A DNA stretch of 64,000 nt from Candidatus Poriferihabitaceae bacterium (lineage in GTDB: Bacteria > Pseudomonadota > Gammaproteobacteria > Arenicellales > Poriferihabitantaceae), in assembly GCA_965203265.1 (NCBI GenBank), contig CBDBBV010000002.1:129617-193616 (forward strand). Direction: 5' to 3'. The position numbers and the translations under genes were made by a program. Of this stretch, positions 51,701 through 64,000 are shown one piece after another (the first letter of the stretch is position 1; every line of letters starts with the position of its first letter). The notes beneath the pieces were generated by a model. The model did not search any database and was not told the DNA's origin. It worked only from the letters and a program-made list of their open reading frames with translations.

Positions 51701-52251
51701 CGCCGTCCCTGTCCCTCGGCGCCCGCCACGACGGCGGAGACGGCAACACCGGCGCCGGCGCCGAGGTGAGCGGTCGCGTGCACTACGACAACCCCGAGAC
51801 GGGTTTGAGCGCATCCGCCGACCTGCACACCCTGTTGGGCCGCAGCGACTATAGCGAATGGGGCATACAGGGCATGGTGCGACTGAAGCACGGCGCCGAT
51901 GGTCAGGGCCTGTCCTTCATCCTACGCCCCGGCTACGGCGGCGCAGGCGAGGGCGACACCAGCCAAATCTGGTCCCACGGCCTACGCGACACCGCCGCCC
52001 CCACCACCCGCGACACCGGCGGGCGGTTGGAAATGAGATTGGGCTACGGCCTGTCGGCCTCCGGCGAACGAAGCGGCCTGTTGACCCCGTGGGGCGGCCT
52101 GACTTTGCACGGCGATGGCAAGCACTATCGCCTAGGGCTGGATTGGGCCTCCGGCGGGCTGTTCACCGTGCGCCTGTCCGGGGAGCGCCGCGAGCAGGAG
52201 AACGCGGACGCCGACCATGCCGTTTTGCTGAAGGGCGAGATGCGCTTCTGA
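48748..52251 (+). CDS. autotransporter-type outer-membrane protein with Calx-beta-like repeat passenger (5' end unresolved; probably phase-variable)
   Basis: Hydrophobic signal-like LALLLGALALFAVAPLQAQA, FN3-like module, 4-5 repeats of about 117 aa, and a C-terminal beta-domain of about 400 aa (ASLWGSGDYRTL..., alternating pattern, terminal MRF). Only a TTG (48748) is available as an in-frame start. The frame stays open upstream to 48610, and ATG 48549 lies in the -1 register across the poly-C tract. Confidence 0.75.
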   Translation: MLGALALFAVAPLQAQAPPVPANILLTTGNAQFTVNWDASPGAGTYVIRYDDSTGESINRLKAAVFVRPGTVTSRTIVTNSSLTITNGTTYRVRIRACAGQATSGTGCSAFSAVQTVVPTATPQLSFATNTYSVNEGESVTVTVRISPRLTSASSVSVAIGITPDHFTLSGVSGQPPLYGLVLPANADSATFTFTAVTDQVIEGEQLYQFLLLSIGSAPPYGIATNARTTTVTIVDTTVRKIRFAETAYSVVEGDSITLTVTIVPQLTTASFATALYGSSSSADCEDDFSLSGVTGSCEGELWDFSLPANADSTTITLAATADSLAEGDETAIFTLRKVGGEPYTVPSSSNEATVTIATPQVSFAETVYSVHEGNSITLTVGISPQLVSASSVRIGYLAASTADVVNDFTLSGVSGSGGLWTLTLPANADTATFTLAATANSPTEGNESAIFGLTPIDSAPYAIASAGELTTVTITDTSQVRFAAADYSVAEGAEVTLTVGIAPQLTTASSVRLTYGASSSADSADDFTLNGVSGSGGSWSLTLPANADTATITLAATTDPTPEGNEIAIFNLVAIASPPYSVAVDAGETRVTIGNEITPGLTLTATPNPVRQGSPVTITAHLSQALTSRVTIPITLTAGTANSADYGPLTGIDIAPGDNTGTGTITTTAETTSDTGSGGGTFTVMLGTPLPAGILVSQPSEVEITITLPAPAEQVHRAALPEVARAVADRVTGAISARVERVLRGGGGVGAASLGGQGTLAGALVSHAPDLLNDRRPLRDLLDGSQFVLPLNGDGGGLRSASLWGSGDYRTLSGEQDGLDFDGNLLGAQLGADSMVRDDLLAGVVLSWSQGEFDYENGGSSGSGGAGDYEVDVISLHPYLGGRTDQLDWWATTGYGSGEVSVNPARGEGASNDVILWTLGAGGSGQLWSNGNTDVLFKGEIMQTEMDLKAGAGEASLRVDATLIRLAAQANQRPRTLANGGQLSPSLSLGARHDGGDGNTGAGAEVSGRVHYDNPETGLSASADLHTLLGRSDYSEWGIQGMVRLKHGADGQGLSFILRPGYGGAGEGDTSQIWSHGLRDTAAPTTRDTGGRLEMRLGYGLSASGERSGLLTPWGGLTLHGDGKHYRLGLDWASGGLFTVRLSGERREQENADADHAVLLKGEMRF
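49117..50880 (+). repeat. tandem array of about 350-nt coding repeats (Calx-beta-like modules)
   Basis: Units start at QLSFATNTYSVNEGESVTVTV, KIRFAETAYSVVEGDSITLTV, QVSFAETVYSVHEGNSITLTV and QVRFAAADYSVAEGAEVTLTV, plus a degenerate fifth (GLTLTATPNPVRQGSPVTITA). Shared internal LPANAD(S/T)ATxTLAAT..(E)G(N/D)E. Confidence 0.85.
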
Positions 52252-52261
52252 CTATAACGGG

Positions 52262-52306
52262 CGGCGGGCGGCGGCGTTTTCCTCGCGCCCGCCGTTGCCC
52301 TTTTTT
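52262..52306 (+). terminator. rho-independent terminator after the autotransporter gene
   Basis: CGGCGGGCG (52262-52270) pairs with CGCCCGCCG (52286-52294). T6 run at 52301-52306. Confidence 0.6.
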
Positions 52307-52341
52307 CAATGCCCGCTGGCGAATTGGTTTCGCATTGGCTA

Positions 52342-52369
52342 TTGACACGCGCGGACGATTGCATAAAAT
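52342..52369 (+). promoter_or_regulatory. candidate sigma70 promoter of the tRNA Gly-Cys-Leu operon (TTGACA-N16-TAAAAT)
   Basis: Consensus -35 TTGACA at 52342-52347, 16-nt spacer, -10 TAAAAT at 52364-52369. tRNA-Gly starts 26 nt downstream. Confidence 0.65.
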
Positions 52370-52394
52370 TGACCACCCCCACGGATCGTGTCAT

Positions 52395-52469
<75 letters not shown>

Positions 52470-52570
52470 TTTCAACGGGCATGGTGGGGATTGCCGGCCG
52501 GGTGCCGATTCGTCGGGTGTTTTGTTGTGCCGCCCGATTGTGTCGGCTGTGCCGGTTGCGGCGTTGGACG

Positions 52571-52644
52571 GGCTGAGTGGCAGAGTGGTTATGCAGCGGC
52601 CTGCAAAGCCGTTGATCTCGGTTCGATTCCGGGCTCAGCCTCCA
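52571..52644 (+). tRNA. tRNA-Cys (anticodon GCA)
   Basis: GGCTGAGTGGCAGAGTGGTTATGCAGCGGCCTGCAAAGCCGTTGATCTCGGTTCGATTCCGGGCTCAGCCTCCA. Confidence 0.93.
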
Positions 52645-52670
52645 TTCCGCCGGCGCGGCCTCCGGCTCGA

Positions 52671-52756
52671 GCCCGGGTGGCGGAATGGTAGACGCAAGGG
52701 ACTTAAAATCCCTCGATGGCGACATCGTGCCGGTTCAAGTCCGGCTCCGGGCACCA
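52671..52756 (+). tRNA. tRNA-Leu (anticodon TAA)
   Basis: GCCCGGGTGGCGGAATGGTAGACGCAAGGGACTTAAAATCCCT + variable arm + GGTTCAAGTCCGGCTCCGGGCACCA. The order Gly-Cys-Leu mirrors E. coli glyW-cysT-leuZ. Confidence 0.93.
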
Positions 52757-52772
52757 CCTCAGCGGAGCAGTG

Positions 52773-53348
52773 ATGAGCAGCGAAATCGACGACAAGCGAT
52801 TCATATCCGCGCAGGAACTGCTGGAGGATTCCTACCGGCTCGGCGCGCAGATCATCGAGAGCGGTTTCCGCCCGGACTTCATAGTCGGCATCTGGCGCGG
52901 CGGTTCGCCGGTCGGCATCGCGGTGCAGGAAATGCTCGAACATTTCGGCATTTCCACCGACCACATCAGCGTGCGAACCTCCCTCTATCGCGGCATCGGC
53001 CGCCGTGCTGCCTCGGTTCGGGTGCATGGGCTTGGCTACCTCGTGCGCTCCCTCAACGCGGAAAATGCGCTGCTGATCGTGGATGATGTGTATGATTCGG
53101 GGCGCAGCATCGAGGCGGTGATCGCGCAGTTGACCGAGCGCACCCGGCGCAATACCCCGGAATCCATTCGCGTCGCTACCCCGTGGTTCAAGCCGGGTAG
53201 CAACGCCACCGAGCGGCTGCCGGACTATTATCTGCATGAAACCGACCGATGGCTGGTTTTCCCCCACGAAATTCAGGGGCTGACCGACCGGGAAATCGCC
53301 CGCGACAAGCCGGAAATCCACAAAATCATGCAAAATGTCGCGAAATAG
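52773..53348 (+). CDS. type-I phosphoribosyltransferase family protein
   Basis: PRPP-binding loop LLIVDDVYDSGRS. Size and layout resemble purine PRTases. Substrate not assignable. Confidence 0.7.
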   Translation: MSSEIDDKRFISAQELLEDSYRLGAQIIESGFRPDFIVGIWRGGSPVGIAVQEMLEHFGISTDHISVRTSLYRGIGRRAASVRVHGLGYLVRSLNAENALLIVDDVYDSGRSIEAVIAQLTERTRRNTPESIRVATPWFKPGSNATERLPDYYLHETDRWLVFPHEIQGLTDREIARDKPEIHKIMQNVAK

Positions 53349-53580
53349 GGCGTTGCCGGCTCGTTATCCGAAAAAAAACTTGCAGACGGAAACCCGCCGC
53401 TACCCTTCGGGGGTATAATCCGCTCGGTTTCGTCCCACCGCCAGTGTCGTGAAAGCGATATGCGGTGTCGCATCAAGAGCAGAAAGAGAGAGTTCTTGAT
53501 TTGTATATTCCGCCGATTACCGCCGCGCTCGCGAATCGCTGGCGCGGCAACGGCAATTCGCATTTCGCGGGGTTTTTTCG

Positions 53581-54279
53581 ATGGTAGATGACAACACCGA
53601 AGAAGATCTGGATTTGGCCTCCCTGTCCGACGACGAGCTGGTCGAGCAGATGCACGACGATCTCTATGACGGGCTCAGAGATGAAATCATGGAGGGCACC
53701 CGCATCCTGCTGGATCGCGGCTGGGCTGCCGCCAAGGTGTTGGACACTGCGCTGGTCGAGGGCATGCGCATAGTCGGCATCGACTTCCGAGACGGCATCC
53801 TGTTCGTGCCCGAAGTGCTGATGTCCGCCAACGCCATGAAGGGCGGCATGGAGATTTTGCGCCCGCTGCTGGCCGAGACCGGCGCCAAGCCCATCGGCAA
53901 GATGGTGATCGGCACGGTGAAGGGCGATATTCACGATATCGGCAAGAATCTGGTGGCGATGATGATGGAGGGCGCCGGATTCGAGGTGATCAACCTCGGC
54001 ATCGACAATCCGGTGGAGAACTACCTCGAAGCGCTGGAAGAGCACAAGCCGGATATCCTCGGCATGTCCGCCCTGCTGACCACCACCATGCCCTACATGA
54101 AGGTGGTGATCGATACCATGGTGGAGAAGGGCATCCGCAACGACTACATCGTGCTGGTCGGCGGAGCGCCGCTCAATCAGGAATTCAGCGAAGCCATCGG
54201 CGCCGACGCCTATTGTCGGGACGCGGCGGTGGCGGTGGAAATCGCCACCGCCAAGATCGCCGAAAAGCGCGCCGCCTGA
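53581..54279 (+). CDS. corrinoid (B12)-binding methyl-carrier protein
   Basis: B12-binding-2 helical cap followed by a Rossmann B12 domain with the DxHxxG motif (GDIHDIGKN), SALLTTT and GGAP. Resembles MtbC/MtgC-type methyltransferase corrinoid proteins. Confidence 0.85.
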   Translation: MVDDNTEEDLDLASLSDDELVEQMHDDLYDGLRDEIMEGTRILLDRGWAAAKVLDTALVEGMRIVGIDFRDGILFVPEVLMSANAMKGGMEILRPLLAETGAKPIGKMVIGTVKGDIHDIGKNLVAMMMEGAGFEVINLGIDNPVENYLEALEEHKPDILGMSALLTTTMPYMKVVIDTMVEKGIRNDYIVLVGGAPLNQEFSEAIGADAYCRDAAVAVEIATAKIAEKRAA

Positions 54280-54308
54280 GCGTCTATCGCGTCTATCGGG
54301 CTGATCGA

Positions 54309-54911
54309 ATGACGGCGGAGCGCGTGCTGGTCATCGCCTGCGGGGCGTTGGCTCATGATCTGGTGAGAGTGCGGGATCTCAGCCGCTGGGATCACCTCGA
54401 CATCCAGTGCCTGCCCGCCGACCTGCACAACACCCCCCAGCTGATTCCGCAGGCGGTGCAGGACAAAATCACCGAAAACCGTGGCCGTTACCGCCGCATC
54501 TTCGCCGCCTATTCCGATTGCGGCACCGGCGGGCTGCTCGATCGGGTACTTGAGCGGGAGGGGGTCGAGCGTCTCCCCGGCGCTCATTGTTACGAGATGT
54601 TCGCCGGTGCCGCCCAATTCGCGCAGCTGCATCAGGCCGAAACGGGCACCTTCTACCTCACCGATTTTCTCGCGCGACACTTCAAGCGCGTGATCATTCA
54701 GGGCCTCGGCCTCGACCGTTTCCCGCAGCTCAAGGCGGAATACTTCGGCAATTACCGCAAACTGGTCTATCTGGCGCAGCGGGAAGACGAGCACACCGAA
54801 ACCGCCGCCCGGCAGGCAGCCGAATACCTCGAACTCGAATACGAGCGACTCTTCACCGGCGATCGCCATCTTGAAGAATCTCTGGCCGCTGCCGTCGCCG
54901 TCGCGCGCTGA
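54309..54911 (+). CDS. DUF1638 domain protein
   Basis: VLVIACGALAHDL...LPADLHNTPQLIP...YSDCGTGGLLD. Family call from memory of DUF1638 proteins that accompany corrinoid methyltransferase clusters. Confidence 0.5.
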   Translation: MTAERVLVIACGALAHDLVRVRDLSRWDHLDIQCLPADLHNTPQLIPQAVQDKITENRGRYRRIFAAYSDCGTGGLLDRVLEREGVERLPGAHCYEMFAGAAQFAQLHQAETGTFYLTDFLARHFKRVIIQGLGLDRFPQLKAEYFGNYRKLVYLAQREDEHTETAARQAAEYLELEYERLFTGDRHLEESLAAAVAVAR

Positions 54912-55001
54912 TCCCATGCCCTTTCGCCGCTTCGCACGCACGGGCGCCTGACGGCACCCCGCTTCCTTCCATCCCCTCCAGCATCAGCATCCGTAACCAT
55001 C

Positions 55002-55304
55002 ATGGCAAAACTGATCACGGTATCGTGGCGCGACATCCCCGCGCAGGTCATCGCCAAAGAGCGGCGCGACAGCGTCAAGGTCAAGTTGTCCGAGCGTTTT
55101 GCCGAGGCCATCGACCGCGCCGCCATGCGCGCCGGCAAGGGCACTTCGGACGCCTATCTGGCGGACTGGAGACGGCACAGCGTAACCTGCGGCAACGACC
55201 TGCGCGCCGAGGCCGAGGCGGCTGCGGCGCGCTACGAGCGGGAATACGACAAGGAGCGCCTGCTGGCGCTGATCCGCAACAAGGGCGACGAGCCGGAGGC
55301 GTAA
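55002..55304 (+). CDS. small conserved protein, virulence-factor-like family (function unknown)
   Basis: MAKLITVSWRDIPAQVIAKERRDSVKVKLSERFAEAIDRAAMRAG...DAYLADWRR. The pattern matches what I recall for the Pfam family named Virulence_fact. The name is historical, not functional. Confidence 0.4.
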   Translation: MAKLITVSWRDIPAQVIAKERRDSVKVKLSERFAEAIDRAAMRAGKGTSDAYLADWRRHSVTCGNDLRAEAEAAAARYEREYDKERLLALIRNKGDEPEA

Positions 55305-55307
55305 CGG

Positions 55308-55772
55308 ATGTACGCAGTGAGAAGATGGTCGGTGCGCCATTCCCGTGGGCTGGAATGGCTGTACGATTGCTTTGAAAAGGTCATGACGGCGCTACATCCG
55401 CTGTGGAATCTGATCGGCTACGAGCGCGTCGACAAGCCGGTGGCCGCCGTCGAGAAGGTGGTCAAGGGCGTGCTGTTCGACTGCCGCATGTGCGGGCGCT
55501 GCGCGCTCGGCTCCACCGGCATGTCGTGCCCGATGAATTGCCCCAAGCAGATGCGCAACGGGCCGTGCGGCGGCGTGCGCAGCAATGGCAACTGCGAGAT
55601 CGAGCCGGATATGCCGTGCGTTTGGGTCGAGGCGTACAAGGGCAGCCGCTCCATGCGCCACGGGGAAAAGATTCTGGTGCTACAGCCGCCGCTGGATTGG
55701 TCGGCGGAAGGTTCTTCCGCATGGTTGCGAGACGCGCGCCGGGCGCACCCGCGCGGAGGCGAACAGGCATGA
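55308..55772 (+). CDS. MTHFR C-terminal-domain protein (MetV-like Cys-rich small subunit)
   Basis: Cys cluster CRMCGRCALGSTGMSCPMNCPKQMRNGPCGG. Overlaps the following MTHFR gene by 4 nt. Confidence 0.6.
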   Translation: MYAVRRWSVRHSRGLEWLYDCFEKVMTALHPLWNLIGYERVDKPVAAVEKVVKGVLFDCRMCGRCALGSTGMSCPMNCPKQMRNGPCGGVRSNGNCEIEPDMPCVWVEAYKGSRSMRHGEKILVLQPPLDWSAEGSSAWLRDARRAHPRGGEQA

Positions 55773-56788
55773 CCGACGAGATCGAGCAGGCGCTTGCATC
55801 CATCCTGACCCAGCGCACAGGCCATGTTTCCGCCGGGCGGCTGGAGCAGGTGTTGCGCGCCGGTGAGTTTGCGGTAACCGCCGAACTGGCGCCGCCGGAT
55901 TCGGCCAGCGCGGAGGAGGTGTTCCGACAGGCCAAGTGGTTCGACGGCCATGTAGACGGCATCAACGCCACCGACGGCTCCGGCGGCAACTGCCACATGT
56001 CCAGCGTCGCCGTGTGCGCGCTGTTGAGCGGCGCCGGTTATTCTCCGGTCATGCAGATCGCCTGCCGCGACCGCAACCGCATCGCCATACAGGGCGAAAT
56101 TCTCGGCGCCGCGGCGCTGGGGGTATCCAACATGCTGTGCCTGACCGGAGACGGCGTGCAGGCGGGAGACCACCCGAATGCCAAGCCGGTGTTCGATCTC
56201 GACTCCATCTCGCTGCTCAACACCGCGCGCACCCTGCGCGATGAATCGAGATTGCTGAGCGGGCGAAAACTGGCCGAGGCGCCGAGGGTATTCCTCGGGG
56301 CGGCGGCCAATCCCTTCGTCCCACCGCGAGAATTCCGCGTGGAGCGGCTGGAAAAGAAGGTGGCGGCCGGCGCCGATTTCGTGCAGACCCAGTATTGCTT
56401 CGATCTGCCGGTGCTCGAGCGCTACATGCAGCAGGTGCGCGACAAGGGCTTGCACCAGCGGGTATTCATCCTAGTCGGCGTCGGCCCGCTGGCTTCCCCG
56501 CGAGCGGCGCGCTGGATTCGCGACAACGTGCCTGGGGTGCACATCCCCGATGCCGTCATCGAACGCCTCGCCGGCGCCGAGGACGCCAAACGCGAAGGCA
56601 GGAAAATCTGCATCGAGATGATGCAGCAAGTGAAGGAAATCGAGGGGGTCGCCGGCGTGCATGTCATGGCGTACCGACAAGAGCAGTGCGTGGCCGAGAT
56701 GGTTGCGGCTTCGGGGGTGCTGGATGAGCGCCTGCCGTGGCGTCCCGGCGAAGAGATAAACTTGCAACATCGGAGTAATTCAGCATGA
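55769..56788 (+). CDS. metF: methylenetetrahydrofolate reductase (MetF family)
   Basis: TIM-barrel MetF features: FAVTAELAPP, INATDGSGG, CRDRNRIA, GVSNMLCLTGD, FVQTQYCFD. Confidence 0.75.
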   Translation: MTDEIEQALASILTQRTGHVSAGRLEQVLRAGEFAVTAELAPPDSASAEEVFRQAKWFDGHVDGINATDGSGGNCHMSSVAVCALLSGAGYSPVMQIACRDRNRIAIQGEILGAAALGVSNMLCLTGDGVQAGDHPNAKPVFDLDSISLLNTARTLRDESRLLSGRKLAEAPRVFLGAAANPFVPPREFRVERLEKKVAAGADFVQTQYCFDLPVLERYMQQVRDKGLHQRVFILVGVGPLASPRAARWIRDNVPGVHIPDAVIERLAGAEDAKREGRKICIEMMQQVKEIEGVAGVHVMAYRQEQCVAEMVAASGVLDERLPWRPGEEINLQHRSNSA

Positions 56789-57684
56789 CCGACACCATCG
56801 TTTGTTCCCCCAAGGGCGAACTGAAAATCGGATTCGAGCAGCCGTTCGTGATCATCGGCGAGCGCATCAACCCCACCGGGCGCAAGATTCTCGCCGAGGA
56901 AATGAAGAACGGCGACTACAGCCGAGTCGAGGCCGACGCCGTCGCCCAAGTGGCCGCCGGCGCCACCATGCTCGATGTCAACGCCGGCATCCCGCTGGCG
57001 GATGAACCGCGCATTCTGGCCGAGTCGATCCGCTTGGTGCAGTCGGTTACCGATGTGCCGCTGTCCATCGACTCGTCCATCGTCGCCGCCCTCGAATCCG
57101 GCTTGGAGGCGTATCAGGGCAAGGCGTTGCTGAACTCGGTAACCGGCGAGGAAGAGCGACTGGAAGCGGTGCTGCCGTTGGTGAAGAAGTACGGCGCGGC
57201 GGTGGTGGCCATATCCAACGATGAGGCGGGCATATCGGAAAATCCGGATGAGCGTTTCGATGTTGCCAAGAAGATCGTCCAGCGAGCCGCCGACCACGGC
57301 ATTCACTACAGCGACATCGTGGTCGACCCGCTGGTCATGCCGGTGGGTGCGGTCAACAGCGCCGGGCGTCAGGTGCTCCATCTGGTGAAGCGCCTGCGCG
57401 AGGAACTCAAGGTAAACACCACCTGCGGCGCCTCCAACTTCAGTTTCGGCATCCCCAATCGCAAGGGGATGGACGGCACTTTCCTGAGCATGGCCATCGC
57501 CGCCGGCCTCACCTCGGCGATCACCAATCCCCTGCACGAGGAAGTCATGCAATCCATCATGGGCGCCAATGTGGTCATGGGCCACGACAGAAACTGCGCC
57601 AGATGGCTGAAGAAATACCGCCAACCGGCAGCGGAAGACGCCCCACCCGGACGCCCCCGCCGCCGCCGCCGCGCCTCTGCGTGA
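56785..57684 (+). CDS. pterin-binding methyltetrahydrofolate:corrinoid methyltransferase (DHPS-like, MtgA/AcsE/MetH-domain type)
   Basis: FVIIGERINPTGRK, MLDVNAG, LSIDSS, ALLNSVTGEE, DPLVMPVGA, TCGASNFSFG are hallmarks of the pterin-binding methyltransferase domain. Confidence 0.8.
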   Translation: MTDTIVCSPKGELKIGFEQPFVIIGERINPTGRKILAEEMKNGDYSRVEADAVAQVAAGATMLDVNAGIPLADEPRILAESIRLVQSVTDVPLSIDSSIVAALESGLEAYQGKALLNSVTGEEERLEAVLPLVKKYGAAVVAISNDEAGISENPDERFDVAKKIVQRAADHGIHYSDIVVDPLVMPVGAVNSAGRQVLHLVKRLREELKVNTTCGASNFSFGIPNRKGMDGTFLSMAIAAGLTSAITNPLHEEVMQSIMGANVVMGHDRNCARWLKKYRQPAAEDAPPGRPRRRRRASA

Positions 57685-57747
57685 GCGACAGCCCCGGAAC
57701 CGCTCCGGTTGCACCGCAATGGAAATTGCCGATTTTTACAAAATGGG

Positions 57748-57777
57748 TTGCAAAATCGATATTTCGCGAATTATACT
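57748..57777 (+). promoter_or_regulatory. candidate sigma70 promoter for the NYN gene (TTGCAA-N18-TATACT)
   Basis: -35 TTGCAA at 57748-57753, 18-nt spacer, -10 TATACT at 57772-57777, inside an AT-rich 200-nt gap. Confidence 0.45.
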
Positions 57778-57887
57778 TGCGACTCAAGACTACCCATCGG
57801 ATCACCGCCCAGATAGGGAAACACGGGGTTCGATCATCTTGAACTCAGGGGCGCTTCGTGTGCCCCTGTGTCTTTAAAGGGATTGAT

Positions 57888-58535
57888 ATGTCCGGTAACT
57901 CTCCGACTCAAGGATCACGCTATCGTGTTCGCGTGTTTGTCGATTTTTGGAATTACACGCTCAGTATGCGAGATGCCGACAGAGCTTTCCGCACCGACTG
58001 GGCGAAGCTCGGGCCGATGCTGTCTCGCGAAGCGGTCGCTGTGGTTGATGCCGCTGCAACCGGCGAATATCAGGGATTGAATTTCTACGGTTCCTACGAC
58101 CCTGCCAGCGAAAAAGACAAGAAACTGCGCCGATGGGCAACAACGGTGGTGGACACTTTTCCCGGCGTGAGCGTGTCGATCATGCCGCGCCAAAGGAAAC
58201 TTTCATCTCCCGAATGTCCCATCTGCCATGAAGCGGTGTCGGTCTGTCCAGCTTGTGGCGCAAACATGCGAGGGACTGAGGAGAAAGGCGTCGATGTACA
58301 TATGGCGACCGATATGATTCGACTCGCCTGGGTCAACAACTACGACATCGCGGTGCTGGTCTCGTCCGACCGGGACTTCGTGCCGGTGGCCGAATTTCTG
58401 GCGACTCGCGGGATTAAGGTGATTCACGGGAGATTCCGGCCGAAGGGCATGCAATTGACCCAGCGATGCTGGGGCGCGATCAACATCGCCAGTTTGCGCG
58501 AGGGGTTTCGCCTCCCCGAACCGAGAGAGGCTTGA
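57888..58535 (+). CDS. NYN/LabA-like ribonuclease-domain protein with an inserted CxxC...CxxC zinc ribbon
   Basis: VFVDFWNY (first acidic motif), EEKGVDVHMATDM, and LVSSDRDFVPVAEFLATRGIKV are NYN/PIN-like signatures. CPICHEAVSVCPACG is inserted between motifs. Confidence 0.75.
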   Translation: MSGNSPTQGSRYRVRVFVDFWNYTLSMRDADRAFRTDWAKLGPMLSREAVAVVDAAATGEYQGLNFYGSYDPASEKDKKLRRWATTVVDTFPGVSVSIMPRQRKLSSPECPICHEAVSVCPACGANMRGTEEKGVDVHMATDMIRLAWVNNYDIAVLVSSDRDFVPVAEFLATRGIKVIHGRFRPKGMQLTQRCWGAINIASLREGFRLPEPREA

Positions 58536-58550
58536 GGGGGACGGAATACA

Positions 58551-58958
58551 ATGCCCGCCGTTACACGCCGCCGGATGAGCGACAGCCCCAAAGTCGTCAC
58601 GGGCGGCTGCCTGTGTGGTGGCGTGCGTTGGCGGGTGAGTGGCGAGTTGCGGGGGGTGATCAATTGTTTTTGTGGGCAGTGTCGCAAGACCAGCGGGCAT
58701 CATGTTGCCGCTACCCGTGCCGCGTTGGCGGATTTTCACTTGGACAGCGACAGCACGCTGGCGTGGTATCATTCCTCGGCGAGGGCGCGGCGCGGGTTTT
58801 GCCGGCAATGCGGTGGCAACCTGTTTTGGCAGAATTTCGAGCTCGCCACCATCAGCATCATGGCGGGCTCCATCGACGATCCCACCGGCCTTGAAACCAT
58901 CGACAACATCCATGTCGAAGACGCCAGCGATTATCAAATTATCCCCACGCTGAAATGA
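58551..58958 (+). CDS. GFA (glutathione-dependent formaldehyde-activating / CENP-V) family zinc protein
   Basis: GGCLCGGVRW...CFCGQCRK...GFCRQCGGNLFW is the GFA Cys pattern. Confidence 0.8.
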   Translation: MPAVTRRRMSDSPKVVTGGCLCGGVRWRVSGELRGVINCFCGQCRKTSGHHVAATRAALADFHLDSDSTLAWYHSSARARRGFCRQCGGNLFWQNFELATISIMAGSIDDPTGLETIDNIHVEDASDYQIIPTLK

Positions 58959-60991
58959 ACTCGGCTTCATCCTCCGATACCGTCCACATCGTCTTCACCC
59001 CCTCCGGCAAGCGTGGCCAAGTCGCACTCGGCAAGTCGGTGCTCGAAGCGGCGCAGCAGCTCGGCGTGGATTTGGACACGGTGTGCGGCGGGCGCGGCTT
59101 GTGTGATCGTTGCCAGATCGACCAGAGCGTCGGCGATTTTGCCAAGTTCAAGATCAAGTCCGAGGCGTCTCATTTGTCGCCGCCGAGCGCCGCCGAGCGG
59201 GACTTCTTCCCGGCCGATTCGCCGCCGACTCGCCGCCTCGGTTGTCAGGCGAAATTGCGCGGCGATGTGGTCATCGATGTGCCGCCGGAGAGTCAGGCGC
59301 ATCGGCAGGTGGTGCGCAAGCGCGCCGATGTGCGCGGGATAACGGTCAATCCGGCGGTTCGGCTTCATTATGTCGAAGTCCCCGAACCCAACATGCACGA
59401 GCCGAGCGGCGACCTGCAGCGCCTCCTCGACGCCCTCGAATTCGAATGGGGGCTGACCGATCTGCGGTGCGATTTCCCCATTCTCGAGCCACTGCAGACG
59501 GCGCTGCGAAATGGCCACTGGAAGGTTACCGTGGCGGTTCACCAAGACGCGCGGATCATCGCCCTGTGGCCCGGCCTGAAGAACACCGTGTACGGCATGG
59601 CGGTGGATGTCGGCTCCACCACCATCGCCGCGCACCTGTGCGATCTGGTAACCGGAGAGGTGGTGGCATCGGCCGGCAAGATGAACCCGCAGATTCGCTT
59701 CGGCGAAGACCTGATGAGCCGGGTTTCCTACGCCATGATGAATCCGGGCGGGGAAGTGGATATGACTCGGGCGGTGCGGCAGGCATTGCAGGAACTGATG
59801 GAGGAAGTCGTTGGCGAATCTCGCATCGATCTGGCGGACGTGCTCGACATGACCCTGGTGGGCAATCCGGTCATGCACCATCTGCTGCTCGGCATCAACC
59901 CCGTGGAATTGGGCGGCGCGCCGTTCGCGCTGGCCACGGATCAGGCCGTAGACGGCCTCGCCGCCGATTTGCAGTTGCGCGCCCATGCCGGCACCCGCGT
60001 CTATGTGCTGCCGTGCATCGCCGGGCATGTGGGCGCCGATGCGGCCGCGGTAACCCTGTCCGAAGCGCCATATGCGCGCGAGCAGATGACTCTGGTGGTG
60101 GATGTCGGCACCAACGCCGAGATCGTGCTCGGCAACGACAAGAAAATGGTGGCGGCCTCCAGCCCCACCGGCCCGGCGTTCGAGGGCGCGCAGATCAGCG
60201 GCGGCCAGCGCGCCGCCCCCGGCGCCATCGAGCGGGTGCGCATCGACCGCGAAACTCTGGAACCCCGTTTTCGCGTGATCGGCTGCGAATTATGGTCCGA
60301 CGAGGAAGGCTTCGACCGCGCCGTCGCGCCAACCGGCGTAACCGGCATCTGCGGCTCCGGCATCATCGAGGTCATCGCCGAACTCTATCTGGCCGGCGTG
60401 ATCAAGTCGGACGGCATCATCGACGGCGCCACGGCATCCACAAGTTGGCGCGTGCAGCCCGACGCCAAGACCTGGGCCTACCTATTGCACGATCAGGAGC
60501 CGGTGAAAATCCGCATTACCCAGAACGATGTGCGCGCCATTCAGCTGGCCAAGGCGGCACTGCACGCTGGTGCCCAGCTGCTCATGGACAAAATCGGCAT
60601 CGAGCAGCTCGATCGAATTCGTCTGGCCGGTGCCTTCGGCGCCCACATCGATGTCAAGTACGCCATGGTGCTCGGCATGATTCCGGATTGCCGGCTGGAA
60701 CATGTAACCTCGGCGGGCAACGCCGCCGGTTCCGGCGCCATCATCACCCTGCTGGACAAGACCGCGCGACTGGAAATCGAGGATGTGGTAAAGCGCATCC
60801 ACAAGGTGGAAACCGCGGTGGAGGCGAAATTTCAAGATCATTTCGTCGCCGCGTTGGCGATTCCCCACAAGAGCGCCGACTATCGCCATCTGCGGCAGGA
60901 AGTCGAACTGCCCGAGGCCGTCGCCGGCGGGGCGGGGGCCGACGAGAAATCGGAGCGAGGACGGCAACGCCGCCGGAAAAGTCGCCGATGA
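58955..60991 (+). CDS. corrinoid reductive activase-like protein (N-terminal 2Fe-2S ferredoxin + ASKHA ATPase, RACo type)
   Basis: Plant-type ferredoxin Cys pattern CGGRGLCDRCQ...LGCQ. Large ASKHA/DUF4445-like body (GMAVDVGSTTIAAHL, VVDVGTNAEIVLG, SPTGPAFEG, GICGSG). ATGA overlap with the GFA gene. Confidence 0.75.
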   Translation: MNSASSSDTVHIVFTPSGKRGQVALGKSVLEAAQQLGVDLDTVCGGRGLCDRCQIDQSVGDFAKFKIKSEASHLSPPSAAERDFFPADSPPTRRLGCQAKLRGDVVIDVPPESQAHRQVVRKRADVRGITVNPAVRLHYVEVPEPNMHEPSGDLQRLLDALEFEWGLTDLRCDFPILEPLQTALRNGHWKVTVAVHQDARIIALWPGLKNTVYGMAVDVGSTTIAAHLCDLVTGEVVASAGKMNPQIRFGEDLMSRVSYAMMNPGGEVDMTRAVRQALQELMEEVVGESRIDLADVLDMTLVGNPVMHHLLLGINPVELGGAPFALATDQAVDGLAADLQLRAHAGTRVYVLPCIAGHVGADAAAVTLSEAPYAREQMTLVVDVGTNAEIVLGNDKKMVAASSPTGPAFEGAQISGGQRAAPGAIERVRIDRETLEPRFRVIGCELWSDEEGFDRAVAPTGVTGICGSGIIEVIAELYLAGVIKSDGIIDGATASTSWRVQPDAKTWAYLLHDQEPVKIRITQNDVRAIQLAKAALHAGAQLLMDKIGIEQLDRIRLAGAFGAHIDVKYAMVLGMIPDCRLEHVTSAGNAAGSGAIITLLDKTARLEIEDVVKRIHKVETAVEAKFQDHFVAALAIPHKSADYRHLRQEVELPEAVAGGAGADEKSERGRQRRRKSRR

Positions 60992-60992
60992 G

Positions 60993-61019
60993 GCTTGGTG
61001 GGTGGTTGCACCGCCAAGC
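60993..61019 (+). terminator. possible terminator hairpin after the activase gene
   Basis: GCTTGGTGG / CCGCCAAGC, 9-bp stem with one G-U pair and a 9-nt loop. Only a weak, displaced T-run follows. Confidence 0.3.
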
Positions 61020-61184
61020 GGTTTAGTCGGCGCTTTTCACCTGTGCAATGCCAAAATTCTTGACTTTTTCCGGCTTCGTTGCCATATTTCACCCCGAAAC
61101 CCAACCACACCAAGAGATTAAGACCGTGAAAATGCACTTCGGCCCTGGCGTTCCCATTTTCGTTTGAGGGAATATCCGGGGGAT

Positions 61185-61760
61185 CTATCCGGGATACAGT
61201 CTTTTCTTCTCCAAGAATTTCTTGATTCCTTGACCTGCCGCTTTCAGGGGGAACTGGATGCGTTTTCCCAAGAGTTTCTTCACTTGGCGCGCGTAGTCAA
61301 GCGTTTCGGTGTTGCACTGCTCGAACATACCAAATAGTTTCAATTTTCTGCCCTGTTCCAAGTTCCTGACGATCTCGTAGTTGAAGCTTTGACCGAGCGC
61401 CAGAAGTTGGGACTGACTATGAAAATATGATATCACCGCTTTTTCTTCTTCTGTTTTCAGCCATTCCAGCGCATCGATCACTTGATCGTAGGTAAGATCG
61501 TCGGTGGACGAAGTAATCACAGTGTATGGTGTATAAGTTGGGTCATTTTCGATAAGTCGTCGGGTGTTCGTGCTGTTTTCCTGATGCACACTAGAAACTT
61601 CGATCGTCCTGTCTGCGTGGTGGTAAATGGTGTTGATCAATTTTCGCCTCTTGCTACGACGCACTTGCAAGTAAGTGTAAATACTGAACCCGAAAGCAAG
61701 AAAAGAGACCACTATGGCCCCTCCGGCGCCCCACAACGAAATCAAGTTTTGTGTGCTCAT
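61185..61760 (-). CDS. hypothetical membrane-anchored protein, 191 aa, lower-GC
   Basis: Start at internal ATG 61760 with GGAGA SD. N-terminal TM (WGAGGAIVVSFLAFGFSIYTYL) followed by RRSKRRK, then a soluble domain of about 140 aa with no recognised motif. A sampled line (61381) gives 27/60 G+C. Confidence 0.55.
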   Translation of the reverse strand: MSTQNLISLWGAGGAIVVSFLAFGFSIYTYLQVRRSKRRKLINTIYHHADRTIEVSSVHQENSTNTRRLIENDPTYTPYTVITSSTDDLTYDQVIDALEWLKTEEEKAVISYFHSQSQLLALGQSFNYEIVRNLEQGRKLKLFGMFEQCNTETLDYARQVKKLLGKRIQFPLKAAGQGIKKFLEKKRLYPG

Positions 61761-61955
61761 GTTTTCTCCATAAACATTGGCGCTTGTACAAGAACAAAAC
61801 GCCGATCCATTGAAAGCAGCTGGGTGGAGCACCTGGCCCCAGCAAACCGTGATTACACACAGCCTTCCCAACCGCCGCCGTGCACCATACATACTCGGTG
61901 TCGATGGCGCAACTACATTCCATAAAAAAATGAACCCCCAACTACCACCCCCACC

Positions 61956-63515
61956 TCAATAATTGGAATCCGCAAACGACCCCTTGCGTTTATCGATATA
62001 TTCCACCAAAGCCTCGTCAATAGCCGGATCAATAGCCGGAGCAACATAATCCCGCAACATCTCCTTCCACAACTTGTTGGCACGTTGCACCGCATCCTGC
62101 GCGCCTTCGGATTGCCATTGTTCGAAGCTGTTGTTGTCGGCCACGTTTGAGCGATAAAACGCGGTTTTGAAATTGCTCTGGGTGTGCGCGCAGCCGAGGA
62201 AATGGGCGCCGGGGCCGACTTCGCGGATGGCGCTCAGCGCCTGACCGTTTTCCGATAGATCGAAACCTTCGGCAAACACCGCCATCATCCCCAGCTGATC
62301 CGCATCCAGAATCAGCTTCTCATAACTGGAAGCGAGGCCGCCTTCCAACCAACCCGCCGCGTGCAGCACGAAATTCACTCCGGCGGCGAGAGTCGGCAGC
62401 AGCGTGTTGGCACTTTCGAATGCCGCCTGCGCGTCTGGAACCTTCGACCCGCACAGCGAACCGCCGCTGCGGAAGGGAACGCCGAGACGCCGCGCCAACG
62501 CCGCTGCGCCGTTCAGCACCAGAGCCGGTTCCGGCGTGCCGAAGGTGGGGGCGCCGGATTGCATGGAAATGGAACTGGCGAAAGTGCCGAACACCACCGG
62601 CGAGCCGGGTCGCACCAGTTGGGTAAACGCCATCCCCGCCATCGCCTCGGCGAGGATTTGCGCGAGCGTGCCGGCGGCGGTTACCGGCGACATCGCGCCG
62701 GCGAGGATGAACGGCGAGATGATGCTGGCCTGATTGTTGCGCGCATACACCTCGGCGGCGCCGAGCATGGTTTCGTCGAAAGTCATCGGTGAATTGGCGT
62801 TGATCAGGTTGATCACCACGGTGTTTTCATTGACGAACCGCTCGCCGAACAGGATGCGGCACATCGCCACCGTGTCTTCGGCGCGCTCCGGATGGGTAAC
62901 CGAGCCCATGAACGGCTTGTCGCTGTACTTAATGTGGCTGTACACCATATCGAAATGGCGCTTGTTGACCGGCAGATCGGTAGGCTCGCACACCGTACCG
63001 CCGGAATGGTGCAACGCCGGTAGTTGATAGGCCAACTTCACCAGATTGCGAAAATCCTCGATGGTCGCATAGCGCCGCCCGGCGTCGAGATCGCGCACGA
63101 ACGGCGAGCCGTATACCGGCGCAAACACCGTGTGCCGCCCGCCGATCATGACGCTGCGCGCCGGATTGCGAGATTTCTGCTCGAACACCGTCGGCGCCGA
63201 ATCGCCAATGATCCGGCGGCACATGCCGGGCGGGAAGCGCACCCGCTCGCCGTCTATCTCGGCACCGGCCTGCTTGAACAGCCGAATTGCCGGTTCGTAG
63301 CGAAAATCGATGCCGATTTCCGCGAGGATGGTATCGGCGTTTTGCTCGATGAGGACGAGCCCCTCTTCGCCGAGCAGTTCGTATTCGGGAATGACGCGGG
63401 TGATGTACGCGGGCGCCGCCGGCGTGGGGCTAGCGCCTCCGCCCCCATCCCCGCCCGCGCTTGCTGAGCGACCGCGACTCCGGCGGCGGCCTCGTTTTCC
63501 TGCAGATTCCGACAT
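61956..63515 (-). CDS. MttB-superfamily (trimethylamine methyltransferase family) corrinoid-dependent methyltransferase, non-pyrrolysine type
   Basis: 519-aa uninterrupted ORF with MttB-family features (LLGEEGLVLIEQNADTILAEIGIDF, INANSPMTFD, GAMSPVT, HAAGWLEGGL). No internal amber codon. Confidence 0.85.
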   Translation of the reverse strand: MSESAGKRGRRRSRGRSASAGGDGGGGASPTPAAPAYITRVIPEYELLGEEGLVLIEQNADTILAEIGIDFRYEPAIRLFKQAGAEIDGERVRFPPGMCRRIIGDSAPTVFEQKSRNPARSVMIGGRHTVFAPVYGSPFVRDLDAGRRYATIEDFRNLVKLAYQLPALHHSGGTVCEPTDLPVNKRHFDMVYSHIKYSDKPFMGSVTHPERAEDTVAMCRILFGERFVNENTVVINLINANSPMTFDETMLGAAEVYARNNQASIISPFILAGAMSPVTAAGTLAQILAEAMAGMAFTQLVRPGSPVVFGTFASSISMQSGAPTFGTPEPALVLNGAAALARRLGVPFRSGGSLCGSKVPDAQAAFESANTLLPTLAAGVNFVLHAAGWLEGGLASSYEKLILDADQLGMMAVFAEGFDLSENGQALSAIREVGPGAHFLGCAHTQSNFKTAFYRSNVADNNSFEQWQSEGAQDAVQRANKLWKEMLRDYVAPAIDPAIDEALVEYIDKRKGSFADSNY

Positions 63516-63643
63516 GACTTGCTCCGATAATCAAAAAATCAAACCGGCAAAAATATACGCCTTCCCCCCCGCCGGAACAAGCCGCGATACGACCTGAAGG
63601 CAGCCGATTGCGCCACAAAGCGCCTTTGTACGATAATCGAAAC

Positions 63644-64000
63644 ATGGAAGAGATAGCGGAAAACGAGAACACCGCCACCGCCGAGCCGGCGCCCGATCCC
63701 ACGCCCGCGCCCACGCGCTACGGATTTTTGCTGGTGCCGGAGTATTCCATGATGGCTTTCGTCGCCGCCGTGGATCAAATCCGCATGGCCAACCGGCTAG
63801 CGAACCGGCAACTGTACGAATGGGTCGTATTGAGCGAAGACGGCGAGCCGGTGCACGCCAGCAACGACCTATCGGTGTCGGCGCTGGCCATGCACGCCAG
63901 CGAGGCGCTGGATGTGGTATTCGTCTGCGGCGGCACCAACATCGAGGCGCAGGCGAGCAAGCCGATAAACGCCTGGCTGCGGGCGCAATCGCGCCGACGG
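63644..64000 (+). CDS. GlxA/GbdR-type AraC-family regulator, N-terminal DJ-1/PfpI-like domain only (3'-truncated by window edge)
   Basis: YGFLLVPEYSMMAFVAAVDQIRMANRL...DVVFVCGG is the amidase-like sensor-domain pattern of GATase1-containing AraC regulators. Divergent from the MttB-family gene. Confidence 0.65.
   Translation, partial: MEEIAENENTATAEPAPDPTPAPTRYGFLLVPEYSMMAFVAAVDQIRMANRLANRQLYEWVVLSEDGEPVHASNDLSVSALAMHASEALDVVFVCGGTNIEAQASKPINAWLRAQSRRR

Follow-up and report, generated by a model that had tools for sequence, protein, structure and literature searches.

The closest described relatives of the gene cluster analyzed here, which occupies positions 53581-64000 of a 64,000-nucleotide stretch (hereafter, the window) of contig CBDBBV010000002.1 from a Candidatus Poriferihabitaceae bacterium and apparently encodes a cobalamin-dependent methyl-transfer system, come from aerobic Alphaproteobacteria. 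In aerobically grown Phaeobacter inhibens, fitness genetics revealed that genes for a corrinoid protein, a pterin-binding protein, a RamA-like protein and a DUF1638 protein act together as a split methionine synthase and are needed for growth without methionine; the parts of this system are PGA1_c13350, c16040, c13370, the RamA-like c15200 and the DUF1638 gene c13340, which shows cofitness with the genes of the split methionine synthase (Price et al. 2018, PMC5764234). In aerobic Ruegeria pomeroyi, knockout of mtgC or mtgD abolishes both growth on glycine betaine and its consumption, and makes the cells auxotrophic for methionine (Mausz et al. 2025, PMC12478193). In the same organism, which has up to seven paralogs of the PF06253 family, two PF06253 proteins (MtgB1 and MtgB2), MetF2, RamA and DUF1638 are induced on glycine betaine, choline and carnitine, and MetF2, encoded next to mtgD, is the protein most induced on N-osmolytes (PMC12478193). 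Mausz et al. found the genes in co-located operons of marine Alpha-, Gamma- and Deltaproteobacteria, noted that MetH is absent from about 70% of the genomes with MtgBCD, described the Sinorhizobium meliloti cluster as MtgBCDE plus reactivation modules, and ranked this route among the major pathways by which N-osmolytes are turned over in the ocean (PMC12478193).

The locus in the window resembles each of these systems. As in R. pomeroyi and S. meliloti, it encodes a PF06253 protein (MtgB), a carrier with B12 cap and B12-binding domains (MtgC), a PF00809 methyltransferase (MtgD), a MetF2 equivalent next to mtgD, a RamA-like activase and a DUF1638 protein, for which the same methyl flow can be proposed. 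As in the split methionine synthase of P. inhibens, which is active under oxic growth, the corrinoid protein, the pterin-binding protein, the activase (ferredoxin plus DUF4445) and the DUF1638 protein are encoded by separate genes. With MtgABC of Desulfitobacterium hafniense (MtgB DSY3156, PDB 2QNE/9YCE), the locus shares a TIM-barrel enzyme of the MttB family that has Leu in place of pyrrolysine (Pyl), as well as a cognate corrinoid protein, the predicted transfer of the methyl group to tetrahydrofolate (THF) and a RamA-type activase. In contrast to R. pomeroyi, where the genes are scattered, the window holds all of them except for MtgE in a single locus of about 10 kb. Further differences from the R. 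pomeroyi and S. meliloti systems are the uncultured, sponge-associated gammaproteobacterial host, a GbdR-like regulator gene divergent from mtgB, and the interspersed genes for a GFA-family protein, an NYN-domain protein and a small open reading frame (ORF) product. Unlike the P. inhibens system, which was identified through methionine auxotrophy and has a PF02574 homocysteine module, the window has an MttB homolog and a MetVF pair linked to the core; and unlike in D. hafniense, a strict anaerobe, the THF methyltransferase is MetH/MeTr-like (PF00809) and not similar to MtgA.

Gene content and order

In our assessment, the locus probably encodes an intact MtgBCD-type cobalamin-dependent methyl-transfer system, as in aerobic Alphaproteobacteria, with glycine betaine as the most likely substrate. 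An earlier note, made from the DNA letters alone, had listed a corrinoid carrier, an MttB-superfamily methyltransferase without an amber codon, a pterin-binding methyltransferase, a MetV-like and MetF pair, a RACo-type activase and a divergent AraC-type regulator. Searches with Pfam and NCBIfam profiles supported these family assignments, and every gene family named was found where the note had placed it within 53581-64000, with strong profile scores.

The corrinoid (cobalamin) carrier of the MtgC type (53581-54279, plus strand; 232 amino acids (aa)) combines a B12 cap with a B12-binding domain (Pfam B12-binding, E-value 2.3e-28; B12-binding_2, 2.1e-15), as in the proteobacterial MtgBCD(E) system. 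It contains the predicted His-on DxHxxG motif at residues 116-121 (D116-I-H118-D-I-G121), together with S163-x-L and G194-G195, is 78% identical to the cobalamin-binding protein of the S. meliloti cluster, and scores below both NCBIfam cut-offs for the anaerobe MtgC (206 bits vs 370 and 177 bits vs 310). The next gene encodes a DUF1638 protein (54309-54911, plus strand; 200 aa; PF07796, 5.8e-28), 50% identical to its S. meliloti homolog, which by analogy would be an accessory to B12 reactivation. It is followed by a small PF13769 ('Virulence_fact') protein (55002-55304, plus strand; 100 aa; 6.3e-23), the counterpart of which in the S. meliloti cluster is annotated as 'virulence factor'.

The MetV-like protein (methylenetetrahydrofolate reductase (MTHFR) C-terminal domain; 55308-55772, plus strand; 154 aa; PF12225, 1.2e-28) is Cys-rich, with eight Cys between residues 59 and 104, and the adjacent MetF-type MTHFR (55769-56788, plus strand; 339 aa; PF02219, 7.8e-34), the MetF2 equivalent, is 68% identical to the MTHFR of the S. 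meliloti cluster. A PF02219 catalytic subunit next to a Cys-rich small PF12225 subunit is the MetVF-type arrangement, in agreement with the pair predicted from the letters. This metF paralog adjoins mtgD and ends 4 bp inside it. The MtgD-type pterin-binding methyl-corrinoid:THF methyltransferase (56785-57684, plus strand; 299 aa; Pterin_bind, 7.4e-28) is, likewise, of the predicted family: it is 61% identical to the S. meliloti protein, exceeds the cut-off of NCBIfam PRK07535 (362 bits vs 259), and has the pterin domain of Thermotoga maritima MetH (1Q7M, 4e-41) and MeTr (2YCK, 3e-40) as its closest solved structures. D. hafniense MtgA is not among the solved-structure matches of this protein at E <= 1e-10; MtgA has been described as having no sequence identity to known structures (PMC7154762).

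Further along the plus strand lie the genes for a zinc protein of the GFA family (glutathione-dependent formaldehyde-activating enzyme-like; 58551-58958; 135 aa; PF04828, 1.9e-17) and for the RamA/RACo-type ATP-dependent reductive activase of corrinoid proteins (58955-60991; 678 aa). The activase contains the three RACo domains of Pfam (RACo_linker, 7e-30; Raco_middle, 1e-46; RACo_C_ter, 1.7e-89) and four Cys in 2Fe-2S-type spacing (Cys44, 50, 53 and 97), which precede the linker, middle and ASKHA domains; this agrees with the 2Fe-2S/ASKHA assignment of the earlier note. It matches Carboxydothermus hydrogenoformans RACo over the full length (PDB 3ZYY, 1.2e-80) and shares with RACo and with methanogen RamA the order of the [2Fe-2S] N-terminal domain, linker, middle domain and ASKHA ATPase, with scores below the NCBIfam cut-offs for AcsV (382 bits vs 800) and RamA (107 bits vs 500). 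Unlike RACo, which serves CoFeSP, the activase in the window would serve a methyltransferase corrinoid protein, in a probable aerobe.

On the opposite strand, the MtgB-type non-Pyl MttB-superfamily substrate:corrinoid methyltransferase is encoded at 61956-63515 (minus strand; 519 aa). According to the start-codon coordinates, a 128-bp intergenic region (63516-63643), presumed to be the control region, separates mtgB from the divergent gene of a GlxA/AraC-family regulator (63644-64000, plus strand), which runs off the window after 119 codons. The gene pairs MetV/MetF, MetF/MtgD and GFA/RamA overlap by 4 bp at their start and stop codons, which indicates operon-like packing, as expected of co-translated genes. 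Promoter and terminator consensus sites in the cluster were not above the shuffled expectation (4 vs 3.2 and 12 vs 11.5), with no promoter consensus in 63516-63643; we draw no conclusions on transcription units from them.

The window and the S. meliloti cluster have eight proteins in common, encoded in the same order and with identities of 50-78%. The annotated S. meliloti record lists an ASKHA protein, a methyltetrahydrofolate-cobalamin methyltransferase, an MTHFR, an MTHFR-C-terminal-domain protein, the 'virulence factor', a DUF1638 protein and a cobalamin-binding protein; a divergently oriented gene codes for a 'trimethylamine methyltransferase family protein', and in the vicinity are bmt and a gene for a glycine betaine/proline ATP-binding cassette (ABC) transporter.

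Assignment of the regulator relies on a public ENA metagenome contig of 54.7 kb (L081) that is 92-97% identical to the window at the DNA level and carries the same genes in the same order. The 119-codon fragment in the window has no Pfam match of its own; it is 90% identical to the N-terminus of the complete, 337-aa L081 protein, which contains DJ-1_PfpI and HTH_18 domains. On the NCBIfam GbdR model NF052371, the L081 protein scores 435 bits (1.8e-130; model positions 13-327 of 365), compared with 159 bits for the next family, and the ortholog in a member of Candidatus Poriferihabitaceae (L005) scores 406 bits. Hence, of the GlxA/GbdR-type regulator proposed originally, the affinity to GbdR stands, through this ortholog, as GbdR-like, whereas the window itself holds only the 5' part of the gene and the equivalog cut-off of 480 bits is missed. 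The regulator resembles GbdR of Pseudomonas aeruginosa (NF052371) in the combination of a DJ-1/PfpI-like N-terminal domain with an AraC helix-turn-helix domain; unlike Pseudomonas GbdR, which controls an oxygenase route (gbcAB), it lies beside a corrinoid route.

The MttB homolog and its binding pocket

The MttB homolog is a single uninterrupted ORF of 519 codons that matches PF06253 almost from end to end (748.7 bits, 2.3e-225; profile positions 4-499 of 500). We compared it with three named reference sequences found in a PDB search, namely, D. hafniense MtgB, the protein of PDB 4YYC, and Methanosarcina barkeri MttB. Leu354 aligns with the Pyl residue ('X') of M. barkeri MttB (7XCL), the position that is also Leu in D. 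hafniense MtgB, and there is no in-frame UAG, as the note had stated. On TIGR02369, the equivalog model for the Pyl-dependent trimethylamine methyltransferase, the protein scores 252 bits against a cut-off of 525. Significant alignment to 7XCL is confined to the C-terminal half (1e-32), whereas D. hafniense MtgB is matched over the full length (43% identity, 1e-125).

These comparisons make it extremely unlikely that the locus encodes a true trimethylamine methyltransferase system, even though homologs are annotated at the source as 'trimethylamine methyltransferase family protein' and the gene contains a sub-threshold match to the Rfam element PYLIS_3, the mttB pyrrolysine-insertion element (62357-62460, minus strand; 31.3 bits vs a gathering score of 38). 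Given that there is no UAG in the gene, we read this match as leftover coding-sequence homology, and the trimethylamine identity was rejected on the TIGR02369 score, the lack of an amber codon and Leu354.

The closest solved structure is PDB 4YYC (68% identity over 507 aligned residues, E 5e-234), a 'putative trimethylamine methyltransferase' from structural genomics with no function assigned, which is 90% identical to an ortholog from Sinorhizobium sp. CB7 and has the same Y/R/H/W/GG pocket residues as the protein in the window. This structure holds an unidentified ligand.

Mutagenesis and a ligand-bound structure have defined the betaine site of D. hafniense MtgB, in which the trimethylammonium group is held by cation-pi contacts with Y97 and F356, and the carboxylate by R312 and H348; the F356L substitution increases the Michaelis constant several hundred-fold, and it is in the aromatic pair that the pockets of MttB members with different substrates, such as MtcB, MtpB, MthB and MtyB, differ (Picking et al. 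2026, PMC13080624). Three of these four residues, Y97, R312 and H348, correspond to Y135, R349 and H385 in the window and are invariant in all 83 aligned sequences. The fourth, F356, aligns with Gly393, and Gly is present at this position in 81 of the 83 sequences; indeed, the entire Tyr-Phe pair of D. hafniense MtgB (Y355-F356) is replaced by Gly-Gly. Four residues upstream of Gly393, Trp389 is invariant in the 82 proteobacterial sequences (82/82) and is Ile in D. hafniense; this residue might supply the second aromatic face of the pocket.

Together, the conserved Y135, R349 and H385, the GbdR-like regulator, and the scores that place the protein outside the Pyl-dependent and trimethylamine-specific enzymes point, short of proof, to a carboxylate-bearing quaternary amine, most probably, glycine betaine. 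The system could also work as described on another quaternary amine of sponge tissue, such as carnitine, gamma-butyrobetaine, proline betaine or a choline derivative. The altered aromatic pair, with Gly in place of F356 and the invariant Trp389 instead, would suit such a substrate, considering that it is this pair that varies among MtcB, MtpB, MthB and MtyB; the identity to the sole biochemically proven MtgB is only 43%; the specificity of the PF06253 paralogs of R. pomeroyi is not established; and carnitine has been detected in sponge tissue, where carnitine-using symbiont guilds have been proposed in the literature. However, the Arg and His that bind the carboxylate are conserved, as is the first aromatic residue; the regulator is closest to GbdR; the S. 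meliloti ortholog is found near bmt and the glycine betaine/proline ABC transporter gene; and it is the MttB ortholog group of this protein that is in physical linkage with MtgC and MtgD in different classes. We therefore consider a substrate other than glycine betaine rather unlikely.

Intactness, selection and recurrence of the cluster

The eight core genes are of identical length in the window and in L081, with ratios of nonsynonymous to synonymous substitution rates (dN/dS) of 0.00-0.17, which implies purifying selection and no decay. That the locus is a remnant in decay, silent or pseudogenized, in a reduced symbiont genome is, accordingly, very unlikely. In its favor, a segment of about 658 bp with an NYN gene interrupts the operon, and the closest family members have no MetV/MetF in the cluster; on the other side, all ORFs are full length when compared with the Pfam models, the gene for the GFA protein keeps its own ATG after the insertion, and the lengths and dN/dS values are those just given, on which the pseudogene reading was rejected. 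In this relative, the cluster shows no pseudogenization.

We then scanned one genome per species with the MttB homolog and obtained 80 orthologous loci with 67-85% identity from Gamma-, Alpha- and Betaproteobacteria. Within 10 kb of the MttB ortholog, the activase was found in 36 of these loci, the pterin protein in 33, the corrinoid protein in 31, PF13769 in 28, DUF1638 in 23, the regulator in 21, MetV together with MetF in 19, and GFA in nine, all of these counts being lower bounds because many contigs are short. The grouping of the cluster genes, thus, is not due to chance, given that the partners recur beside MttB orthologs across the 80 loci. MttB orthologs with the block next to them occur in Sinorhizobium, Rhizobium, Halioglobus, Woeseia, Steroidobacteraceae, Granulosicoccaceae and Poriferihabitaceae. 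Where PF13769 is present, it always lies between DUF1638 and MetV or MtgD.

The reductase module is more variable. In the closest family-level relatives, four genomes of Candidatus Poriferihabitaceae (L001, L003, L004 and L005), PF13769 is followed directly by mtgD, without MetV and MetF in the cluster, whereas MetV and MetF of the window and L081 share 61-67% identity with their counterparts in Granulosicoccaceae, Woeseia and Steroidobacteraceae. It follows that the MTHFR module was gained or lost within the symbiont family.

Two ORFs of the cluster, the NYN gene and the small ORF on the minus strand, have no counterpart in any of the 80 related loci. The NYN-domain/zinc-ribbon ORF (57888-58535, plus strand; Pfam NYN, 3.9e-14), which has weak PADLOC matches to HEC-09 (4e-11) and NYN, belongs to the segment of about 658 bp (57910-58567) between mtgD and the GFA gene that is absent from L081. 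This ORF uses the start codon and approximately the first six codons that are those of GFA in L081, and GFA in the window restarts at its own ATG at 58551. The segment could be an insertion in the window or, alternatively, could have been deleted in L081 between short ATGYCCG repeats; the NYN ORF is a passenger outside the conserved system. The small ORF (61185-61760, minus strand; 191 aa) is predicted to have a single membrane helix and matches no family in Pfam, NCBIfam or PADLOC. A local Rfam search detected a DUF3800-VI RNA motif (RF02915) 57 nt upstream of it (61817-61874, minus strand; 42.2 bits vs a gathering score of 35, E 1e-7). The motif and the ORF form a unit that sits between mtgB and the activase gene in a stretch of lower GC content, a slot that is filled by different genes in relatives.

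Proposed pathway and a probable second role of the core genes

The methyl flow proposed previously, from the N-methyl group through CH3-Co(III) and CH3-THF to CH2-THF, is supported by the profile searches, synteny and selection analysis, and can be outlined by analogy with the homologous systems. MtgB would bind a carboxylate-bearing quaternary amine, most probably, glycine betaine, and transfer one N-methyl group to Co(I) of the cobalamin carried by MtgC, leaving dimethylglycine. MtgD would then move the methyl group from CH3-Co(III) to THF, and the MetV-like/MetF pair (55308-56788) would oxidize CH3-THF to CH2-THF, which would enter one-carbon (C1) oxidation or assimilation, the direction of flux being that of the homologous systems. 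After accidental oxidation of the cobalamin to Co(II), the RamA/RACo-type protein would restore Co(I) through its [2Fe-2S] cluster and ATP, with the assistance of DUF1638. As judged from its relatives, the divergent GbdR-like regulator probably activates at least mtgB in response to betaine or dimethylglycine.

Several points weigh against this interpretation. For MtgB of Proteobacteria there are neither in vitro assays nor knockouts, and the R. pomeroyi paralogs were shown only to be induced (PMC12478193). Our link to the R. pomeroyi system goes through the S. meliloti cluster, so that orthology to MtgB1 or MtgB2 (SPO2108 and SPO2134; UniProt Q5LRL7 and Q5LRJ3) and to MtgC (SPO2160; Q5LRG8) is putative. 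The fourth betaine-binding residue is replaced, and the L081 regulator, below the equivalog cut-off, is GbdR-like but not a certified equivalog. Genes for a betaine transporter, for dimethylglycine/sarcosine catabolism or for MtgE are found neither in the window nor beside the cluster in close relatives; the closest relatives, as noted above, lack MetV and MetF in the cluster; the oxidation of CH3-THF would depend on an electron acceptor that makes it run; and a search with S. meliloti bmt as the query detected no MtgE/PF02574 homolog anywhere in the 64-kb window. The description of the cluster as 'complete' is overstated.

If R. pomeroyi and P. inhibens are a guide, the core formed by MtgC, MtgD, RamA and DUF1638 probably works in reverse as well, from CH3-THF through Co to homocysteine, as a split methionine synthase with an unlinked MtgE. 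This likely dual role was absent from the earlier note, as were five genes of the cluster, namely, those for DUF1638, PF13769, GFA, the NYN protein and the small ORF at 61185-61760 (minus strand). Taken further, the operon could be chiefly the core of a split B12-dependent methionine synthase (MtgC, MtgD, RamA and DUF1638, with MetVF working in the reductive direction to supply CH3-THF and MtgE unlinked), in which case the MttB homolog would be a secondary add-on that shares the corrinoid protein. This possibility is compatible with betaine demethylation, the question being which role dominates. It agrees with the requirement for the P. inhibens homologs in the absence of methionine, the auxotrophy of the R. 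pomeroyi mtgC and mtgD mutants, and the lack of MetH in most genomes with MtgBCD; MetF in the operon fits both directions; and in 44 of the 80 loci, the MttB ortholog has no core within 10 kb, which indicates that the two modules can be separate. Yet, apart from the missing PF02574/MtgE homolog, a search of Rfam found no S-adenosylmethionine (SAM) or cobalamin riboswitch in 52000-64000 at E <= 1, and hence none before the operon; the nearest regulator is GbdR-like and not a methionine regulator; and the MttB gene adjoins the core here and in 30-odd other genomes. On balance, we view methionine synthesis as a possible but less than likely dominant role, and retain demethylation, with glycine betaine as the most probable substrate, as the preferred reading of the locus.

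A more speculative suggestion is that the proteobacterial MttB group with its rebuilt pocket (Tyr plus Trp389, with Gly-Gly) binds the substrate differently or prefers another betaine, and that PF13769, the MetV-like protein and GFA, which are not discussed by Mausz et al. (PMC12478193), permit CH3-THF oxidation and corrinoid chemistry in oxygen-exposed cells. We offer it tentatively, as a doubtful proposition; neither the altered pocket nor such roles of the accessory genes are addressed in the published work on the aerobic system.

Genomic context and host

The rest of the window is ordinary chromosome, with a two-component system, an Opp-type ABC transporter and the genes rpsD, tgt, prfB, lysS, polA and uvrD. 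Among genomes with names, the nearest are those of sponge-associated Gammaproteobacteria of the order Arenicellales (Candidatus Spongiihabitans, Candidatus Poriferihabitans and Candidatus Poriferihabitaceae), which have in common with the window the junction between a phosphoribosyltransferase gene and mtgC as well as the mtgB/regulator pair; beyond the regulator, relatives carry msbA-lpxK-kdsB. The host was originally called apparently aerobic; this lifestyle is plausible, although nothing in the window demonstrates it.

Directly 5' of the phosphoribosyltransferase gene (true start at about 52773), which is followed by the corrinoid operon, lies a trio of tRNA genes (Gly-GCC, Cys-GCA and Leu-TAA; 52395-52756, plus strand). 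Just 5' of the tRNA genes, a 1167-aa secreted repeat protein is encoded (48748-52251, plus strand), with Calx-beta-like repeats, an fn3-like N-terminus and an autotransporter beta-domain; this protein is possibly a host-interaction adhesin of the symbiont. Farther upstream, a 1412-aa gene product (37435-41673, plus strand) is encoded in a low-GC island (GC 0.38 vs about 0.62; GC at third codon positions 0.32) and matches PADLOC TmtA of the Tiamat anti-phage system (808 bits) and Pfam NOV_C. This is probably a horizontally acquired defense gene.

Implications

The system itself is already known, having been described in aerobic marine bacteria in 2018 and 2025, and the locus is a further example that involves no new kind of biology; the statement that the proteobacterial version is largely uncharacterized is, in view of these publications (PMC5764234, PMC12478193), out of date. 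The labels 'trimethylamine methyltransferase' that are attached to such genes are misleading. What remains of interest is the altered aromatic cage, the unexplained accessory genes, and an aerobic clade without enzymology: the replacement of F356 by Gly and the presence of Trp389 provide a concrete, testable point on substrate recognition in this clade, and the compact, operon version of the system comes with three conserved partners (PF13769, the MetV-like protein and GFA) still unaccounted for in published models. The locus adds a sponge-symbiont gammaproteobacterial lineage, with relatives in Arenicellales and Candidatus Poriferihabitaceae, to the hosts of B12-dependent betaine demethylation. 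In the sponge, this route would connect host- or diet-derived betaines, the C1 metabolism of the symbiont, and the supply of cobalamin.

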